From: a virus
Lineage: Duplodnaviria > Caudoviricetes
Length of the DNA stretch: 59,520 nucleotides
Virus record (IMG/VR): IMGVR_UViG_3300030389_001291
Span: 1-59,520 of that record
Strand: one strand, 5' to 3'
Shown one piece after another: positions 1 to 59,519 of this stretch (positions are counted from its first letter, which is position 1; every line of letters starts with the position of its first letter). The position numbers and the translations under genes are program-made. The notes under the pieces were generated by a model. That model was not told the DNA's origin. It saw only the letters and a list, made by a program, of their open reading frames with translations, and did not search any database.

Positions 1-98
1 AAATCAGAATTTTAACCTTAACTGTCCTTGGAGGGACAATTTATTATGCAAAATAATCATAATAAAAAAACGGGGTCTCCAGTTTCTACTGTAGTTTC
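1..98. repeat. Terminal overlap (identical to 59422-59519); circular or terminally redundant assembly
   Basis: 98-nt exact match between the contig start and end. The end copy reads into the same gene start. Confidence 0.95.
23..38 (+). promoter_or_regulatory. RBS hairpin with UUGGAG loop (early-gene type)
   Basis: TGTCC-TTGGAG-GGACA, followed by ATG at 46. Confidence 0.8.
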
Positions 99-828
99 TG
101 ATGAAACGAAACTTTGGTTAGAAAACTTAGAGACTAAATATGGTATTGGTGTTGGTAGACAACTTTTTTATGTCTTAGCAGACATTATTCAATCTGAAAA
201 AGATTTAGAAAAGTTGGTAGTCAAAGGATTACTTAAAGAGCATGAAAGCAAAGGGAAACTTTTGCAAGATATGGCTAATGAACTTGGATTAAATTCTAAT
301 TCTAAGCCAGTTATTAGTGCTAATGTTGTTGATGTTTTTACTAAAAAAACTAAACCAATAAACAAGACTATTAAGAAAGTCTTAAAGACTAATTCTGATA
401 TCAATACTAAAATGAAATCCGCTATGCAAGATTGCGTTAGTAAAAATCAATCGAATGAATTTGAGATTGATTGGACTAGCCTAGGCAAATATAGATATTC
501 TGATTTAGATATTTTAGGAATGTCATTGAAAGGATATTCTGTATTAAAAGAAGATAATCTTTTCTGTGGATTTAAAAGTGGTATGTTTGCTACTCTTCAC
601 AACCAAGCGTTGGCATTGTGGAGGGATGAGGAAAAGCAACCTACGATTAAAGAAATTGTTAGATTGCAACCACGATATACCAAGACTGGAGAACTTAGGA
701 ATTTGTGTATTCAGTCTATCGCCAAGAGATTATTTAAGGCTATTGTTCACTTTGGAACTGCGGAAGAGAAACAGTTGTTATTTGGAACTTCTGAAATCTA
801 TCCTAAGCCAAGGAAGAAAAAAGCCTAG
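46..828 (+). CDS. Hypothetical early protein (260 aa)
   Basis: ORF 28..828 with the start moved to ATG 46, downstream of the GGAGG SD. No family recognised. Confidence 0.8.
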   Translation: MQNNHNKKTGSPVSTVVSDETKLWLENLETKYGIGVGRQLFYVLADIIQSEKDLEKLVVKGLLKEHESKGKLLQDMANELGLNSNSKPVISANVVDVFTKKTKPINKTIKKVLKTNSDINTKMKSAMQDCVSKNQSNEFEIDWTSLGKYRYSDLDILGMSLKGYSVLKEDNLFCGFKSGMFATLHNQALALWRDEEKQPTIKEIVRLQPRYTKTGELRNLCIQSIAKRLFKAIVHFGTAEEKQLLFGTSEIYPKPRKKKA

Positions 829-977
829 AAAATAATAGACTGGTAAATATTTTATCATCTGATTCGGAGATGGTAATTTTTTGAGCTGATTTAAGAGGGG
901 GGTTTTTTGGGGTATCTTATGCCCTTACCCTCTTCTTAAATTTGCAATAGGCGAAGTCTCACGAAGTCAATTTTTGC

Positions 978-1038
978 AAAACTGTATAGAAAATGCGTAT
1001 TTTCTACTGATGATTGCCAAAAGGCATGAAACAGTTTT
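978..1038 (+). ncRNA. Hammerhead ribozyme, type III (HHR6), GUA cleavage after 986
   Basis: AAAACTG-TA/TAGAAAAT-gcgt-ATTTTCTA-CTGATGA-t-TGCC-aaaa-GGCA-t-GAAA-CAGTTTT. All three stems pair around the CUGAUGA/GAAA core. Confidence 0.9.
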
Positions 1039-1050
1039 ATTAATTTTAAC

Positions 1051-1066
1051 TGCCCTTGGAGGGGTA
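1051..1066 (+). promoter_or_regulatory. RBS hairpin with UUGGAG loop
   Basis: TGCCC-TTGGAG-GGGTA, with ATG at 1073. Confidence 0.8.
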
Positions 1067-1072
1067 ATTATT

Positions 1073-1393
1073 ATGAAAAATGAAAAAGAATATGTTTATG
1101 ACATTGAGGAATATTCCCAAGATGTTAGGCATTATCAAATTACATCTAATGTAAAACTTACTTATGATGAAGTTAGGAACTCTTATCAAGAAAGTGATGC
1201 TTATAATAGAGTGAAAGTCTTTAGAGGTTTTAAAAATAGTTGTAATAATTTATCAAAACTTATTGACTGGTCTAATGATAGATTTACAAATCATCAAATA
1301 GACAAACAAATCAAAGTCTATGGTGTTTTTCAAGGCACAAAGTATGGCGATGATTGTCAAGTTGATATAACTGGAGAATTTGAAAATGACTAA
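1073..1393 (+). CDS. Hypothetical early protein (106 aa)
   Basis: ORF 974..1393. The likely start is ATG 1073 after the SD, because the upstream part of the ORF is the ribozyme. Confidence 0.75.
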   Translation: MKNEKEYVYDIEEYSQDVRHYQITSNVKLTYDEVRNSYQESDAYNRVKVFRGFKNSCNNLSKLIDWSNDRFTNHQIDKQIKVYGVFQGTKYGDDCQVDITGEFEND

Positions 1394-1652
1394 TAGGGAA
1401 TTGTTAGAATTTACTTTGAAAGTAAACATAGGAACTTGCAACGAAATCTATACGAAGATTGATAGGCAACTAGAAGAGAAATCAGATATTGATATGGCTC
1501 TAGTTAAATATTTTAATACTTTGGTTTCGATTAATCACAAAGTGCAAGATGTTTTATACAAAGAAAGGGCGGATATGAATTTACCTTTTCCAAAACATCT
1601 TGGATTTACAAGTGATAATCAAATAATAGAAGTTGAAGTGCAAGATATATAA
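1386..1652 (+). CDS. Hypothetical protein
   Basis: ORF overlapping the previous stop, with a GGAG SD upstream of ATG 1386. Confidence 0.7.
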   Translation: MTNRELLEFTLKVNIGTCNEIYTKIDRQLEEKSDIDMALVKYFNTLVSINHKVQDVLYKERADMNLPFPKHLGFTSDNQIIEVEVQDI

Positions 1653-1659
1653 ATAAATT

Positions 1660-1704
1660 AAGGCGGGATGCTACTGTAAAAGGTGGTGTCCCGCCTTTTT
1701 TTTT
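1660..1704 (+). terminator. Rho-independent terminator ending the early operon
   Basis: AAGGCGGGATGCTAC...GTGGTGTCCCGCCTT followed by a long T run. Confidence 0.85.
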
Positions 1705-1861
1705 GGTCTAAAAAAAGAGAATATGGTGGAGCTATCGCAGGTGCTAATAAAAAATATTTACTGGTATATTGTTTTTTCTGGTGTTGCGTGGTGTCAAATT
1801 TGAGGACATGAACACATGATTCAATATGCTATAAATTATATATATTTACTGGTTTTTTGGC

Positions 1862-1893
1862 TGTGGATAAGTCTGTGGAAAAGTTGTGTATAA
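1862..1893 (-). promoter_or_regulatory. Three tandem DnaA boxes
   Basis: TGTGGATAA (1862), TGTGGAAAA (1874) and TGTGTATAA (1885) are reverse complements of TTATNCACA with 0, 1 and 0 mismatches. Confidence 0.7.
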
Positions 1894-1896
1894 CTC

Positions 1897-1925
1897 TTGC
1901 AATATGCTATCTTTTATATTATATT
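1897..1925 (+). promoter_or_regulatory. Sigma70-type promoter for the small RNA
   Basis: TTGCAA-17 nt-TATATT. Confidence 0.6.
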
Positions 1926-1931
1926 GTGATT

Positions 1932-2018
1932 ACCAACATGAAATATAGAATGTAAGTTCATTTACTATATTACCTCCAAGGTAGGGAGGCAGTCGAAAAG
2001 ACTGCTTCCCTTTTTTTT
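1932..2018 (+). ncRNA. Putative ~87-nt small RNA with an anti-SD loop (CCUCCAAG)
   Basis: Has its own promoter, three hairpins and a strong terminator (1984-2018). It has no translatable ORF on this strand, and 1973-1980 is the reverse complement of the CTTGGAGG motif. Confidence 0.6.
1984..2018 (+). terminator. Rho-independent terminator
   Basis: GGGAGGCAGTC-gaaaa-GACTGCTTCCC-T8. Confidence 0.9.
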
Positions 2019-2251
2019 GTCTTTAAGTGATAGTCTAGTGATAGTTGTCCTTATAGTTGCAAACTACACACCTGTCAGTTCCATCAAAAAAATTTACTGG
2101 TAAATATTTTTTTTTAGCTAGAACCTTCTAGCTCCTTCGGTAAAACAATAGACTGGTAAATATTTATATAAAATCCTACGGCTGTGTTGTACAACCTGTG
2201 GTGCAAATAATACAGCAGTAGGGTAAATGTTCCATGTAGAACAATATGTAT

Positions 2252-2280
2252 TTCACTTTGATAGCATTTTGCATTATAAT
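2252..2280 (+). promoter_or_regulatory. Sigma70-type promoter (near-duplicate at 37482-37510)
   Basis: TTCACT-TTGATAGCATTTTGCAT-TATAAT, with ATG only 8 nt downstream. Confidence 0.7.
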
Positions 2281-2288
2281 AGTAGCTT

Positions 2289-2603
2289 ATGTATGCGGTA
2301 ATAAGACACACATATCACTTAGATATACCCGAGCCAAGTAATGTTCACTCAACTAAATCTAGTGCTAAATGGCGACATTTCGTATGGATATTTGAGACTG
2401 AACTAAACGCTCTTGCTTTTGCCATATCTCTTTTAGATGACCCTTTGATTATGTCTAACGAATGGTTAATCGAAAGTGCTATCAAGCAATTAGAAGAAAA
2501 TAGGTATTATCAAGTAGGTAGGGAAAGTGTTGCTATTGCAGAAGTGCAAGACAGTCCGCAGATAATTTATAAGGATGATAACCATGAAAAGTCTATTCAT
2601 TAG
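2289..2603 (+). CDS. Hypothetical protein (probably a leaderless transcript)
   Basis: 104-aa ORF immediately after the promoter, with no SD. Confidence 0.7.
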   Translation: MYAVIRHTYHLDIPEPSNVHSTKSSAKWRHFVWIFETELNALAFAISLLDDPLIMSNEWLIESAIKQLEENRYYQVGRESVAIAEVQDSPQIIYKDDNHEKSIH

Positions 2604-2847
2604 ATGTTCAGAAGAAACCTATGAATTGGCACATTCTCTAGCTAAGAAAGAAAGTCGCTCACTCAACAAACAAATTATTCATATGATACATAGTTTGGCA
2701 GATGAAAAAGGACTTAGTGTAGAAGAAGATACTGCTGAACAAGAGGGTAAAGCTATATTTAGCGGAACTATCAATAGCGATAACTACGATACTAAACTTG
2801 GTTTGCGAGGGATTGCTGAAACAAGGAAACAGGATTTTTCTGATTAA
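2584..2847 (+). CDS. Arc-like ribbon-helix-helix DNA-binding regulator
   Basis: N-terminus KSLFIRCSEETYELAHSLAKKESRSLNKQIIHMI fits the Arc/Mnt pattern (beta strand, helix, RSLN helix). Confidence 0.75.
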   Translation: MKSLFIRCSEETYELAHSLAKKESRSLNKQIIHMIHSLADEKGLSVEEDTAEQEGKAIFSGTINSDNYDTKLGLRGIAETRKQDFSD

Positions 2848-3340
2848 GATACCAGTATGTTAGTAGTGCATTAGAACATTCTTGCATTACTAACTCCTTG
2901 GTTTTGTTAATTTTAGTAGGATTATCTACCATTATTCGCCAAAAAATCTTCTCTCTCTCATGCCCACACTCACTCACTATTCTTTTTTGAACTCTCGATA
3001 ACATAACCGCCCTTGGCAAAGGCTTAAAAAAACTATGACTGGTAAATATTTCTTTCCCATCTCCAGAACTGTGTGGAAAAACTCCGCTTTTTGATATTAA
3101 TTCCAAGTAGCGATTACATACATTATGTTGTTGTGCTGTTAGTTTGTTATCTAAATAAGATTTATCTATGATGTGTTGGTCGAACACGATTGCTCTTCCA
3201 ACCTTGCTTTTACCAATTCTAGTTATTGCAACTTGGTTTCGTAGATGTAAATAAGGACTGCCTAAATCATTAATCTGTAATGTTTCAGAACTCCCAGTCA
3301 AAGTTATCATCAACTTCTTCAATTTCTGCGTATCTCCCAT
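2792..3340 (-). CDS. Hypothetical protein
   Basis: 182-aa ORF downstream of the helicase. Start is uncertain. Confidence 0.65.
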   Translation of the reverse strand: MGDTQKLKKLMITLTGSSETLQINDLGSPYLHLRNQVAITRIGKSKVGRAIVFDQHIIDKSYLDNKLTAQQHNVCNRYLELISKSGVFPHSSGDGKEIFTSHSFFKPLPRAVMLSRVQKRIVSECGHEREKIFWRIMVDNPTKINKTKELVMQECSNALLTYWYLNQKNPVSLFQQSLANQV

Positions 3341-7936: not shown

Positions 7937-8639
7937 AGAACTTACATATAAAGAAGTATGGGACAACCTATCTAAGATAGATTGTTCTGATAAAATAGAA
8001 AAGAAGATGAATTTATCTTATCTATCTTGGGCGTGGGCGTGGGGTGTTCTACAAGAACATTATCCACAGGCACAATACTTATTCTATCAAGGCGAGGGCG
8101 ATGTGCCTTATGTCAAATACCCCGATGGTACAGCAGAAGTTAGATGTAGAGTATCTATAGATAACTTAAATAGAGAAATGACACTAAGTGTTATGGACTA
8201 CAAGAACAATGCAGTACAAAACCCAAATTCAAGACAAGTTAATGATACTAAGATGCGATGCTTGGTTAAGTGTTTAGCCATGTATGGTCTTGGTCATTAT
8301 ATCTATGCAGGAGAAGATGTGCCTAGTGCAGATAAAGAGCCTGTTAAGAAAAAACCTATTACTGAGTTAAAGAATGTTGTAGAAGAAACATCTAAACCAG
8401 TAGAAAAACCAACAGAAGATGTTGAAGCAGATGCAGGTTATGGCACGGAAGCGTGGGCGGAGTTATATACTAAGAGTTTCTTAGACTTAGCAAAACTCAA
8501 CAAAACCAAAGAAGCTATGACATCTTACTATAAAACTAACACTAAAGACTTAGCAACATTAAGGGATAACTTTCCCAAGATGAAAGAGGATTTAGATGCA
8601 GAACTTAAACAAATCGTAGCAAACCTAAAGGAGGAATAA
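7929..8639 (+). CDS. Sak3/DUF1071-type single-strand annealing protein
   Basis: LSYLSWAWAW and RCLVKCLAMYGLGHYIYAGED motifs. Confidence 0.85.
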   Translation: MSKELTYKEVWDNLSKIDCSDKIEKKMNLSYLSWAWAWGVLQEHYPQAQYLFYQGEGDVPYVKYPDGTAEVRCRVSIDNLNREMTLSVMDYKNNAVQNPNSRQVNDTKMRCLVKCLAMYGLGHYIYAGEDVPSADKEPVKKKPITELKNVVEETSKPVEKPTEDVEADAGYGTEAWAELYTKSFLDLAKLNKTKEAMTSYYKTNTKDLATLRDNFPKMKEDLDAELKQIVANLKEE

Positions 8640-10940: not shown

Positions 10941-11011
10941 TATTTTTTTGCAGCCTGAACCAGCAGCGATAAAAATATTTACCAGTCAATGGTTTCTTGG
11001 GAGGGAAACAG

Positions 11012-11395
11012 ATGTTAAAAAATATGCTACAAGAAAAGTTGGATAAACGAAAAAGAAAGTGGTGGAATTGGCACAAAAAAAACCCACAAGTTTGGGATAA
11101 GTTTGAGCAATACACACTAGAGGCTATCAATAGTGGTAGGAAAAAGTACTCGCATTGGGCGATAATCAATCGTATTCGTTGGCACAATGAGATAGAAACT
11201 AGAGGTGGAGACTTTAAGATAAGTAATGACTACATCTGTTTCTATGCCCGTTTATTCCACGCTAGACATCCACAATACAAAGACTTCTTTACATTAAAAC
11301 CATTAAAAGAAGAAAAGGATATGGCTATGTTAGAAAGTACCCATGTGAGTAATGGGAATGTTCGCTCTCTTTCTCAATTCAGGAACCATAGCTAA
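11012..11395 (+). CDS. Conserved hypothetical phage protein
   Basis: ORF 10997..11395 with ATG 11012 after a GGGAGG SD. Confidence 0.7.
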   Translation: MLKNMLQEKLDKRKRKWWNWHKKNPQVWDKFEQYTLEAINSGRKKYSHWAIINRIRWHNEIETRGGDFKISNDYICFYARLFHARHPQYKDFFTLKPLKEEKDMAMLESTHVSNGNVRSLSQFRNHS

Positions 11396-54778: not shown

Positions 54779-54807
54779 TTGAATATGATGTTTACATCGC
54801 TTATACT
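54779..54807 (+). promoter_or_regulatory. Sigma70 promoter of the early operon
   Basis: TTGAAT-17 nt-TATACT with AT-rich upstream sequence. Confidence 0.7.
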
Positions 54808-54813
54808 GTTCTC

Positions 54814-55126
54814 AACAAAGACCAAAACGATTATGTCTCTAAACTGTAGCCAACCACCCGCAAGGGTCTCGAAAGAGGTAAGGTTGAAACCTAAGTCCTA
54901 GGATTAAGAGGTTAAACTTAATCAGACTTATTGGAAAGAAAAGGTTAGTCCAGTCCAATAATGAATTCGCTTCAAGGTAGCTAGTGGGAAACAATAGGAT
55001 AGTTAAAGTCGTGATGACTTCAGCGAGACCCCCAAGACCAAAAGGAAATTATCTTTTTGCCATTGATACAAAAATTGATATGGACTTACTTAAAGATTTA
55101 TAACTTTTGGGACTGCTCCAACAGTC
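54814..55126 (+). ncRNA. Structured ~310-nt leader RNA released by HHR1
   Basis: GNRA-capped hairpins (ACCC-GCAA-GGGT, CTC-GAAA-GAG) in a junction, several 7-8 bp helices, and no SD-linked ORF. Confidence 0.6.
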
Positions 55127-55184
55127 TATGAATTGACATACTGAAGAGCATCCTATTTTGGGATGCAAGAAACTGACCTTGGAG
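55116..55184 (+). ncRNA. Hammerhead ribozyme, type III (HHR1), GUC cleavage after 55126; core has an AA insertion
   Basis: CAG-TC/TATG-aattga-CATA-CTGAAGA-GCATCC..GGATGC-aa-GAAA-CTG. Stem III can be extended by CTCCAA/TTGGAG. Confidence 0.7.
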
Positions 55185-55188
55185 GGTC
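55175..55188 (+). promoter_or_regulatory. RBS hairpin with UUGGAG loop
   Basis: GACC-TTGGAG-GGTC, with ATG at 55197. Confidence 0.8.
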
Positions 55189-55196
55189 TTAGAATT

Positions 55197-55484
55197 ATGG
55201 AAAAAAATAAAGAACAAATAATATTTTTTATTGACCATATAAATACTTTTAGCGATATAGAAAAAGAACTTCATCTAACTGGAGCAAAATATATCTCAAT
55301 GGAACATTCAAAAAGATATGAATGTTTAAAAGTGAAATTTGAAGTTGATGATTATCATCAAAGAAATAAATTAATTAAACTTGCCTTAGAACACGACATT
55401 GATACTAAGATAATTTTTGATGATAGATTTACTCTTAACCAAATTCACGAAAAAGTATTTGATAGATATATCAGAACTTATTAA
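55197..55484 (+). CDS. Hypothetical early protein (95 aa)
   Basis: ORF 55158..55484 with the start reassigned to the ATG after the SD. Confidence 0.75.
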   Translation: MEKNKEQIIFFIDHINTFSDIEKELHLTGAKYISMEHSKRYECLKVKFEVDDYHQRNKLIKLALEHDIDTKIIFDDRFTLNQIHEKVFDRYIRTY

Positions 55485-55544
55485 ACCGACTGATGAGCCA
55501 ATGAAATTTTGGCGAAACTAGATAAGAAATTATCTAGTCTTGGT
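55485..55544 (+). ncRNA. Hammerhead ribozyme, type I (HHR2), GUC cleavage after 55539
   Basis: ACCGA-CTGATGA-GCCAA..TTGGC-GAAA-CTAGATAA-gaaa-TTATCTAG-TC/TTGGT, with a fully canonical core. Confidence 0.93.
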
Positions 55545-55576: not shown

Positions 55577-55592
55577 AATTCTTGGAGGAATT
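55577..55592 (+). promoter_or_regulatory. RBS hairpin with UUGGAG loop
   Basis: AATTC-TTGGAG-GAATT, with ATG at 55597. Confidence 0.75.
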
Positions 55593-56724: not shown

Positions 56725-56785
56725 TAATTCTAATATCAAGATGTGTGTCTTGGCTGATGATTAGGAAACTATGAAATTAGAATTA
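56725..56785 (+). ncRNA. Hammerhead ribozyme, type III (HHR3), AUA cleavage after 56735
   Basis: TAATTCTAA-TA/TCAAGAT-gtgt-GTCTTGG-CTGATGA-t-TAG-gaaa-CTA-t-GAAA-TTAGAATTA. Confidence 0.88.
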
Positions 56786-56798
56786 TTAATCATAAACC

Positions 56799-56812
56799 GA
56801 CCTTGGAGGGTC
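56799..56812 (+). promoter_or_regulatory. RBS hairpin with UUGGAG loop
   Basis: GACC-TTGGAG-GGTC, with ATG at 56820. Confidence 0.8.
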
Positions 56813-57785: not shown

Positions 57786-57837
57786 TCTGATGAGTTGCGG
57801 GGAAAAAACTATTTACCAGTAAATATTTTTTCTTCGC

Positions 57838-57892
57838 TTCTGTCTTAGGATGTAGTCCTAACTGATGATGACTGAAAACAGTCGAAACAGAA
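57838..57892 (+). ncRNA. Hammerhead ribozyme, type III (HHR4), GUC cleavage after 57844
   Basis: TTCTG-TC/TTAGGA-tgtag-TCCTAA-CTGATGA-t-GACTG-aaaa-CAGTC-GAAA-CAGAA. Confidence 0.9.
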
Positions 57893-57904
57893 ACTCATAA
57901 ATAA

Positions 57905-57920
57905 AATTCTTGGAGGGATT
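57905..57920 (+). promoter_or_regulatory. RBS hairpin with UUGGAG loop
   Basis: AATTC-TTGGAG-GGATT, with ATG at 57925. Confidence 0.75.
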
Positions 57921-57924
57921 AATT

Positions 57925-59310
57925 ATGATGAATAGTGAAGAGCGAATAATAAAAGCTAGAGCAAAACTTATGAAAGGTAATGTTGGAATGGCAACCATGT
58001 TATTAAAACTTACTTTGATTGAGAACAATGAGCGATGCCAAACAATGGCTACTGACGGCGTTAATATTTATTGGAATGATGAATTTGTTAAATCAATAAC
58101 AGATGAGGAAATCCAAGCGGTATTGGTACACGAAGCTAGTCATGTTATTTGGGAACATCCGCTTAGAAAAGGAAATCGAAATCACGAACTTTGGAACATA
58201 GCTACTGACTATGTAATTAACTCTTGGATAGCATACGATTTACATATGCAATTACCCGAGGAGGGATTACTTGATAGGAAGTATCACGGACAAAGTGCGG
58301 AGCAAGTTTATAGAACTTTATCGAATGATGAAGATGCTTTAAACGATGCTCTTGAAGATTTAAAATCAAAATCTGATAATGGCGATTCTGATTCTGATTC
58401 TGATTCTGATTCTCAAAATGGTACTGGCGATTCTGATTCTGATTCAGATTCAGATTCAGATTCAAATTCTGATTCTGATTCTAGTTCTGACTCAAACGAT
58501 ACTGCTAATGGAAATGGTAAAGGCAAGTCTCTTGAAGAGAAACTTGCTGATGTTCAATTACCAAGTGGCGAAGTATGGATGCCAACGAATGATGAGGGCA
58601 AAGAATTATCTCCTAGTGAAATGGCTGACTTACAAGAACAGTTGCAAAGAACTATTGCCATGGCTGACAAATTGGAAGGTATGAGCGATGAGGGATGCGG
58701 TGGTTTTGGCGATGCCATGAAACAACTTAATGAAAGTTATGTTGACTGGGTAGATGTGATGCGAGACTTATTGCAAAGTGCTATTGCTACCAACCCCACA
58801 TGGACAAGATTGAATAAAAGACATTCTTGGAGGGGGATTAACTTGCCAAGCAAAGACAAAGAGCCACAAGGTGGCGAACTTGCGATTGCTATAGATACAA
58901 GCGGAAGCGTATGCCAAGAGGAACTCAATGTTTTTGCTACTGAAATCAATGCCATTGCAGAAGATTGCGGTATCAATAAAATTAGAGTTTGCTATTGCGA
59001 TACTACTGTCCGCAAAAATTCTAAAGGCGAATGGTGGGATGAGTACGACTTAGATTGTGAAGAGTTGGAACTCGTTGCCCGTGGTGGCGGTGGAACTAAT
59101 TTTGACCCGCCTTTTAACTTATTCAATGACTATACTGATAATACGGATGAAGTGATAGCGTTTATCTACTTTACGGATGCTTACGGATATTGTTCTGAAG
59201 AAGTTGAGCCTAATGTCCCAGTAATATGGGCGTTAAGTGGCGGAGAAAATTACTATAGCGATGAACTCCCTTTTGGCGAAAAAGTTGCTATCGATTTCTC
59301 TAGGTTTTAA
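57925..59310 (+). CDS. Metallopeptidase-vWA protein (DUF2201-like)
   Basis: TMATDG, HEASH (HExxH), WNIATDYVIN, an acidic linker, MIDAS DTSGS, GGGTNF and FTD. Confidence 0.88.
   Translation: MMNSEERIIKARAKLMKGNVGMATMLLKLTLIENNERCQTMATDGVNIYWNDEFVKSITDEEIQAVLVHEASHVIWEHPLRKGNRNHELWNIATDYVINSWIAYDLHMQLPEEGLLDRKYHGQSAEQVYRTLSNDEDALNDALEDLKSKSDNGDSDSDSDSDSQNGTGDSDSDSDSDSDSNSDSDSSSDSNDTANGNGKGKSLEEKLADVQLPSGEVWMPTNDEGKELSPSEMADLQEQLQRTIAMADKLEGMSDEGCGGFGDAMKQLNESYVDWVDVMRDLLQSAIATNPTWTRLNKRHSWRGINLPSKDKEPQGGELAIAIDTSGSVCQEELNVFATEINAIAEDCGINKIRVCYCDTTVRKNSKGEWWDEYDLDCEELELVARGGGGTNFDPPFNLFNDYTDNTDEVIAFIYFTDAYGYCSEEVEPNVPVIWALSGGENYYSDELPFGEKVAIDFSRF
58384..58492 (+). repeat. Coding GATTCT/GATTCA hexamer repeat (Asp-Ser linker)
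   Basis: Tandem DS codons within the vWA gene. Confidence 0.85.
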
Positions 59311-59430: not shown

Positions 59431-59519
59431 TTTTAACCTTAACTGTCCTTGGAGGGACAATTTATTATGCAAAATAATCATAATAAAAAAACGGGGTCTC
59501 CAGTTTCTACTGTAGTTTC
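59422..59519. repeat. Terminal overlap (copy of 1-98)
   Basis: Exact match to the contig start. Confidence 0.95.

Follow-up and report, generated by a model that had tools for sequence, protein, structure and literature searches.

Genome organization and the early operon

The window, by which we mean the whole stretch of DNA analyzed here, is 59,520 nucleotides long and represents a complete-looking virus of 59,520 bp with 33% G+C (IMG/VR record IMGVR_UViG_3300030389_001291). Its two ends repeat each other, 98 of 99 nt being identical. The unique genome therefore amounts to about 59.4 kb, and the copies of the ribosome binding site (RBS) octamer CTTGGAGG at 27 and 59448 are one and the same site. 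The early operon lies on the plus strand, starting at about 55,180, running across the window ends, and finishing at 1652, ahead of a terminator at 1660-1697. Its products are a MoxR-like AAA ATPase, a DUF3150 protein, a DUF2201 metallopeptidase/VWA-like protein, and several proteins without a family match. Downstream of the operon, a primase-helicase is encoded on the minus strand, and after it the plus strand carries recombination genes for an exonuclease, a Sak-like annealing protein, SSB, and RusA. The structural genes are encoded on the minus strand. No integrase was seen among the 30 ORFs scanned, and no tRNA genes were found in the phage.

Positions 1650-2350 had no DNA match in cultured phages, and the closest primase match, at 33% identity, was to Synechococcus and Planktothrix phages. 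When bacterial genomes were searched for a host with the ATPase alignment, only distant AAA ATPases with 25 to 30% identity were returned.

Hammerhead-like ribozyme cores are a recurrent feature of the early operon. The core pattern (CTGANGA...GAAAC) was matched seven times, against 0.58 matches expected, and five of the seven precede early genes (Table 1). Rfam models gave scores below their gathering scores for a Hammerhead_3 at 57837-57893 (32.4 bits versus 48.5), in which the core CUGAUGA...GAAAC is intact, and for a RAGATH-1 hammerhead at 55452-55544 (27.5 bits versus 56.3).

Two side observations concern the noncoding DNA. A G+C-richer leader of about 330 to 380 nt (54810-55140, plus strand) lies before the first early gene. 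It had no Rfam match at E values up to 1 and is preceded by a promoter-like TTGAAT-17-TATACT near 54779-54807, read by eye. The motif ACTGGTAAATA occurs in 11 exact copies and 3 copies with one mismatch, against 2.9 expected, at 839, 2096, 2152, 3038, 31135, 54756, and 56702 on the plus strand and at 10976, 39244, 57810, and 59336 on the minus strand. Many of the copies are intergenic, and in relatives the motif is kept in the form ...AGACTGGTAAATATTT, so that a role as a promoter or an operator of the phage is possible.

A predicted small RNA beyond the early-operon terminator

Starting about 200 nt past the early-operon terminator, we found a short unit with its own promoter. The preliminary description of this DNA had placed a TTGCAA-17-TATATT promoter, an ~87-nt unit, and a strong terminator after the early operon, and all three were found again at 1897-2018 on the plus strand. 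The promoter match taken alone is weak and not significant, as a scan of the window gave 34 sites versus 26.1 in shuffled sequences. The sequence 1932-2018 folds into three hairpins with a free energy of -29.9 kcal/mol (z score of -5.89), and none of 200 shuffles folded as well. The middle hairpin had been described as UACC-UCCAA-GGUA; the minimum-energy fold has ACCU/AGGU with a 3-nt loop instead, and the form described earlier persists as an equivalent weak alternative. Rfam gave no match at gathering score in the whole window and none at E values up to 5 in positions 1-3000, which include 1932-2018, and the Rfam C4 covariance model did not match the unit.

Table 1. Coordinates of the small RNA unit, its predicted target sites, and neighboring features in the window
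Feature	Positions	Strand	Evidence or remark
Early-operon terminator, upstream of the sRNA unit	1660-1705	+	Terminator scan
Three DnaA-box-like 9-mers, TTATCCACA, TTTTCCACA, and TTATACACA, in one orientation	1862-1893	-	Motif
sRNA promoter, TTGCAA-17-TATATT	1897-1925	+	9/12 consensus positions, sigma-70-like
Predicted sRNA, ~87 nt	1932-2018	+	Start inferred from the -10 hexamer
5′ hairpin of the sRNA; sequence and length vary among relatives	1942-1971	+	Folds
Seed ACCUCCAAG; CCUCCA invariant in the family	1972-1980	+	Alignment and accessibility
Intrinsic terminator: 12-bp stem (1983-2011) including one G-U pair, then U8	1983-2019	+	Terminator scan
Target RBS hairpin, early gene 1 (95 aa), 10-nt match	55178-55185	+	Motif, fold
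Target RBS hairpin, MoxR-like AAA ATPase gene, 8-nt match	55581-55588	+	Motif, fold
Target RBS hairpin, DUF3150 gene, 10-nt match	56802-56809	+	Motif, fold
Target RBS hairpin, DUF2201 metallopeptidase/VWA-like gene, 8-nt match	57909-57916	+	Motif, fold
Target RBS, in-frame internal TTG start in the DUF2201 gene, 8-nt match	58826-58833	+	Motif, fold
Target RBS hairpin, 260-aa early gene, 9-nt match	27-34 (= 59448-59455)	+	Motif, fold
Target RBS hairpin, 106-aa early gene, 9-nt match	1055-1062	+	Motif, fold
Hammerhead-like cores, just 5′ of early RBS hairpins	55141-55173, 55490-55518, 56754-56769, 57862-57894, 1007-1032	+	Core pattern

Repeats surround the unit on both sides. Upstream are three DnaA-box-like sites, one exact (1862-1870) and two with one mismatch each (1874-1882 and 1885-1893), spaced 11 to 12 nt apart, and the trio ends 3 nt before the -35 hexamer. 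DnaA boxes are kept in 33 of the 40 relatives carrying the unit. In the other seven (L018-L020, L022, L031, L038, and L042), other direct repeats, such as CCACAACATCTTGTG, take the place of the trio, and these relatives retain the sRNA together with the core of its promoter. The preliminary description had suggested that the three boxes abutting the promoter could link the unit to replication state; the three boxes are present, but the DnaA link is not universal, the boxes being replaced in seven relatives.

The -35 hexamer itself sits in a 13-bp near-palindrome, TTGCA-N3-TGCAA (1897-1909), which is perfect in several of the relatives L012, L017, L021, L022, L034, and L041. Further copies in the window are no more frequent than expected by chance. 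The element looks like an operator to which a dimeric protein could bind. The near-palindrome and the lineage-differing upstream repeats together suggest that the sRNA promoter is regulated. Directly 3′ of the sRNA terminator is a tandem GTGATAGT repeat (2027-2045), with GATAGTC repeats in relatives, which could be iterons or a protein-binding site. TGATAGT is mildly enriched in the window.

Conservation of the unit in related viruses

We collected relatives by a primase search, which gave 43 viral loci with 60 to 100% protein identity. The sRNA unit occupied the same position in 40 of the 43 loci; of the three not counted, L037 and L040 stop short of this position and L030 is an ambiguous case. 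An ATPase-anchored search, for which 235 ATPase relatives were reported, was evaluated with a strict pattern, and 29 of 80 loci yielded candidates for the unit, with new seed variants. BLAST with the sRNA returned only the contig behind L002/L045 and promoter fragments, and an exact 19-nt seed-plus-terminator pattern likewise matched only that near-identical contig. Since sequence similarity goes no further than this, the family was recovered by synteny.

The order of elements is shared among the relatives: upstream repeats, a promoter of the form TTGCA(A/T)-17-TATATT or TATAGT, a variable 5′ hairpin, the block (A/U)CCUCCA, a small second hairpin, a terminator with a U tail, and GATAGTC repeats. 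In most of them, DNA conservation stops at about 1925, the promoter end, and resumes near 2140-2250; the promoter hexamers persist, and the transcribed part has diverged. Within this divergent part, 22 of 22 aligned sequences share an unchanged CCTCCA, the only other invariant letters being part of the T tail.

The same layout was predicted in 29 unique sequences, and CCUCCA was predicted to be single stranded in all of them. In 29 of 29 sequences, the seed had a higher probability of being unpaired than the remainder of the molecule, with family medians of 0.87 and 0.39, respectively; in the window itself the seed value is 0.60, that is, partly paired. An alignment of 22 diverse members (MAFFT/RNAalifold) showed compensatory double changes in 10 of 10 consensus terminator pairs. 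This alignment recovers the terminator helix only, and hairpin 2 rests on single-sequence folds. The terminator contains many G-U/U-G pairs, which the opposite strand would read as A-C mismatches. When the plus strand and its reverse complement were both folded, the plus strand gave the better fold in 20 of 20 unique members of the family.

Complementarity of the seed to the early ribosome binding sites

The octamer CTTGGAGG is present in 10 copies in the window, against 0.86 expected, a number reached by none of 100 shuffles. ACCTCCA shows no enrichment in the window. The sole minus-strand copy of the octamer is at 1973-1980, where the plus strand reads CCTCCAAG inside the predicted sRNA. With the end duplicate removed, the plus strand has eight unique copies, of which seven are RBSs of the early operon and one is intragenic (9025). 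From base composition, the chance of the 8-mer falling in that ~45-nt stretch of the sRNA is about 2e-4. The preliminary description had reported CCTCCAAG as the perfect reverse complement of the octamer at six early RBSs. The complementarity is as reported, and the number of sites is seven rather than six. Its statement that the match extends to 9 nt at four sites also agrees with our count, the contiguous matches being 10, 8, 10, 8, 8, 9, and 9 nt, hence at least 9 nt in four of seven.

One of the seven is an internal site: CTTGGAGGG at 58826-58845, within the gene at 57928-59310, would give a separate 155-aa C-terminal protein, and L023 has an equivalent.

The match separates early sites from those of middle genes. 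Contiguous complementarity to the sRNA is 8 to 10 nt at all seven early RBSs versus 5 to 8 nt at six middle-gene sites. Each early site in the window is predicted to form a 6-bp hairpin with a 4-nt loop holding part of GGAGG. Cofolding with the sRNA brings a predicted net gain of -8.0 to -10.7 kcal/mol at the seven early sites and -2.7 to -8.6 kcal/mol at the six middle sites, the sole overlap being the middle gene with its site at 8630, which at -8.6 kcal/mol lies within the early range. Scanning the whole genome for duplexes with the 5′ two-thirds of the sRNA proved unspecific, with early sites ranking 5th, 8th, and 18th among AU-rich chance duplexes. The middle gene starting near 11019 has a hairpin RBS, GTTTCTTGGGAGGGAAAC (10990-11010, plus strand), that resembles the early ones with an extra G and has a 5-nt seed match.

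Co-variation of seed and target flanks

We compared sites across 15 representative genomes, which gave 118 early and 40 middle sites. A match of at least 8 nt to the sRNA of the same genome was found at 71 of 118 early sites but at only 2 of 40 middle sites. GGAGG is preceded by T at 94 of the 118 early sites versus 9 of the 40 middle sites; at 25 of these 40 it is preceded by A. The mean match to the own sRNA was 7.75 nt versus 7.06 ± 0.15 nt when sRNAs were shuffled among genomes, and 1 in 100,000 shuffles reached 7.75; such permutation tests ignore shared ancestry, and only about four to five independent flank switches are visible. The same comparison at orthologous sites gave 8.72 versus 7.61 for the ATPase gene (value reached by a fraction of 4e-5 of the shuffles) and 8.29 versus 7.43 for the DUF3150 gene (fraction of 0.003), and was not significant for the DUF2201 gene (fraction of 0.22).

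Several matched pairs of flanks can be read directly from the sequences. In the group of the window, CCUCCAAG is paired with CUUGGAGG. In L010-L015, CCUCCAAAA is paired with (C)UUUGGAGG, and at least three orthologous sites have changed in parallel. CCUCCAA is found with UUGGAGG, L021-L029 pair CCUCCAU with AUGGAGG, and L026, L029, and L033 pair AGACCUCC with GGAGGUCU. Further pairs are a seed AAG with CUU versus AAA with UUU; L038 has UCCUCC paired with GGAGGA in seven of eight sites; and in L087 and L092 the seed reads CACCUCC, with an 11-nt match.

There are exceptions. In L017, L043, and L096 the seed has AU versus UU in most sites, leaving a 7-nt match only. The own sRNA ranks 12th of 15 in L041 and 8th in L016 and L043. 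In the first three sequence groups, GGAGG is followed by a G or an A that is mismatched with the opposing A of the sRNA. We therefore regard the 7-nt pair ACCUCCA/UGGAGGU as the robust core, with extensions to 8 to 11 nt usual but not universal. With these limits (L017/L043/L096, L041, and the DUF2201 gene excepted), the co-variation between sRNA and RBS flanks that the preliminary description had suggested looking for in related phages is present. Its central proposal, a plus-strand sRNA gene with an anti-Shine-Dalgarno (anti-SD) element aimed at early RBSs, is likewise supported by the comparison: the predicted element is conserved, co-varies with its sites, and discriminates early from middle genes.

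Weighing the explanations

We consider it fairly probable that 1932-2018 encodes a trans-acting anti-SD sRNA that represses translation of the early genes, and that it would probably switch off the early genes of the phage itself together. One competitor is a general mimic of the 16S rRNA tail, which would soak up host and phage SD sequences alike and so shut off the host, or would serve as a decoy for a factor that recognizes the rRNA 3′ end. In favor of a mimic, the invariant ACCUCC equals the conserved anti-SD core (PMC10783764), and L087 and L092 read CACCUCC. The invariant A after CCUCC and the phage-specific flanks, however, fit the early sites, 94 of 118 of which have a U in front of GGAGG, rather than the canonical A-rich flank of middle genes, and we hold general mimicry to be improbable. 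The sRNA might also pair with the early sites yet act positively or structurally, protecting the 5′ regions of cleaved mRNAs or modulating hammerhead cleavage. The location of the sites directly downstream of hammerhead-like cores would suit such a role, as would the fact that each site already hides part of its SD in a 6-bp hairpin. Pairing of an sRNA over an SD, though, normally blocks 30S binding, and it is the SD itself that would be covered here; moreover, the seed has no complementarity to the ribozyme cores as far as these were inspected. A positive or structural role thus seems unlikely to us.

Two further readings assign the locus another purpose altogether. The transcript could be part of a replication origin, as a primer or through transcriptional activation, with the CCUCCA block serving some other end. 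The unit does lie between the DnaA-box trio and the conserved GATAGTC repeats and ACTGGTAAATA motifs, in a 600-nt noncoding stretch that adjoins replication genes (primase-helicase). An origin leaves unexplained the invariant exposed anti-SD block, its match to early RBSs, and the co-variation; the seven relatives with replaced DnaA boxes keep the sRNA, and the strong terminator ends the RNA before the repeats are reached. We give this explanation little credence as a substitute for regulation, although an origin location and a regulatory role of the unit can coexist. Alternatively, the motif could be one more RBS hairpin, on the minus strand, that drives a 15-aa ORF (1961-1914), with flanks shared through common site constraints; the preliminary description had named such a role for a translated ORF as one of the observations that would overturn its proposal. 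The minus strand indeed reads UACC-UUGGA-GGUA followed by an ATG 11 nt on, a spacing equal to that of two early genes, a start codon follows GGAGG by 3 to 15 nt in 16 of 20 unique relatives, and L003, L007, and L008 share a peptide start, MKVAF/MKVAL. The threat was not borne out, because the ORF lengths vary (15, 22, 4, 6, 18, 11, 5, 2, 36+, and 40+ aa) and no peptide is conserved. No start codon is present in 4 of 20 unique sequences (L023, L028, L026, and L029), L004, L006, and L009 break the MKVAF frame, and a base-composition estimate puts the chance of a start codon in a 13-position AT-rich stretch at about 46%. A terminator with a T tail, G-U pairs, and a promoter that is conserved are all signs of a plus-strand gene, and a small ORF gives no reason for flanks common to early sites only. 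Considering the plus-strand folding, the G-U pairs and compensatory changes of the terminator, the accessibility of the seed, and the unconserved ORF, which ranges from 0 to 40+ aa, we rejected the minus-strand ORF as a general explanation and regard it as very unlikely.

Proposed mechanism of anti-Shine-Dalgarno repression

In the repression model that we prefer, host RNA polymerase would transcribe the sRNA from its own promoter, and the intrinsic terminator would end it. The functional core would be the exposed ACCUCCA(A/U), which resembles the anti-SD tail of 16S rRNA. In a typical bacterial 16S rRNA 3′ end, a U directly follows CCUCC. The seed has an A there, facing the T of the early sites, so it looks like an anti-SD with one changed letter. 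It would pair over 7 to 11 nt with the U-GGAGG RBS of every separately initiated early cistron, each of these RBSs being a small predicted hairpin just downstream of a hammerhead-like element. We propose that pairing hides the SD from ribosomes and turns down all early proteins together, and that middle genes, with A-GGAGG, and late genes, mostly without GGAGG, escape the sRNA. If the hammerheads cut, each cistron would become a separate mRNA in need of its own site, and a shared mark would let one RNA reach all of them. The comparison establishes the sequence features, how they are conserved, the predicted accessibility of the seed, the complementarity, and the co-variation; production of the RNA, repression rather than activation by pairing, and the time of action are our inferences from these.

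The preliminary description had envisaged loop-loop kissing between the sRNA and the RBS hairpins. This part did not hold up, as such a geometry is not conserved: 15 of 20 unique relatives have the seed in a single-stranded linker rather than in a loop, and the target loops are predicted to have only 4 nt. In most relatives, the predicted folds place the nucleotides that follow CCUCCA in the 5′ arm of hairpin 2, so longer pairing would require hairpin 2 to open. An exposed toehold followed by hairpin opening is the more likely pairing route according to these models. An early-to-middle switch appears likelier than lysogenic immunity, solely because no integrase was seen among the scanned ORFs.

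A broader version of the model may be entertained, and we regard it as tentative and rather doubtful. The sRNA would read a one-letter early mark, U versus A before GGAGG, and silence all ribozyme-released early cistrons while sparing middle, late, and host messages; the co-diversifying flanks would then be specificity classes that could exclude superinfecting relatives of the same class, as an RNA-based exclusion code.

Comparison with known systems and significance

The c4 RNA is cut out of the transcript of its own target, and phage P1 is temperate. The predicted sRNA differs in having its own promoter beyond the operon terminator and no match to the Rfam C4 family, and in this phage the scan of 30 ORFs showed no integrase. 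According to the accessible text of PMC12197685, c4 RNA of phages P1 and P7 pairs around the RBS of the phage's own mRNA and blocks translation, and related phages differ in specificity through minor substitutions in the pairing nucleotides that are mirrored in the target. Set against that account, the predicted sRNA is similar in being phage encoded and RBS directed and in having specificity variants between related phages, but c4 as described there targets one mRNA (ant), while one seed here fits seven operon sites. With no Rfam match and its own promoter outside the target operon, the predicted sRNA would be functionally like c4 yet lies outside the c4 family.

In phage T4, RegA is a repressor with a role in the shut-off of early mRNAs. 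The T4 RegB endoribonuclease inactivates early mRNAs through a GGAG SD, as stated in the available portions of PMC1702504 and PMC3014915. The predicted sRNA would be like RegB/RegA in logic, with early mRNAs inactivated together via a GGAG SD; RegB and RegA are, however, proteins, RegB cleaves rather than pairs, and there is no sequence relation.

On the host side, Firmicutes have the C-rich sRNAs RsaE/RoxS and RNAIII, which act in trans and pair an exposed C-rich motif with the G-rich SD of several mRNAs; these are host encoded, have CCC/UCCC loops, and act on metabolic or virulence targets. The predicted sRNA would share with them the anti-SD pairing to several mRNAs and differ in being phage encoded, and it has no Rfam match.

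Multiple hammerhead ribozymes have been found to flank genes in polycistronic RNAs of phages and prophages (PMC3088659, accessible text). As in the prophages described there, the intergenic regions of the target operon carry hammerhead-like cores; the predicted sRNA itself is not a ribozyme. A linked anti-SD sRNA is not described together with phage hammerheads in the accessible text of PMC3088659, and a limited literature search found no published description of a phage sRNA aimed at all RBSs of an early operon.

Few regulatory RNAs encoded by phages are known, most of them in model phages, whereas here a whole family emerges from uncultured phages by comparison alone. The family follows a clear and testable rule, one invariant 6- to 7-nt seed and a matched set of RBSs, and its natural compensatory variants amount to a ready mutant series; the seed/site pairs could serve as orthogonal translational switches. 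If the proposed function is true, the sRNA would be an RNA-only counterpart of the protein-based early shut-off of T4, and these phages would mark a temporal class of genes by the flank of the SD, linked to operons cut by ribozymes.
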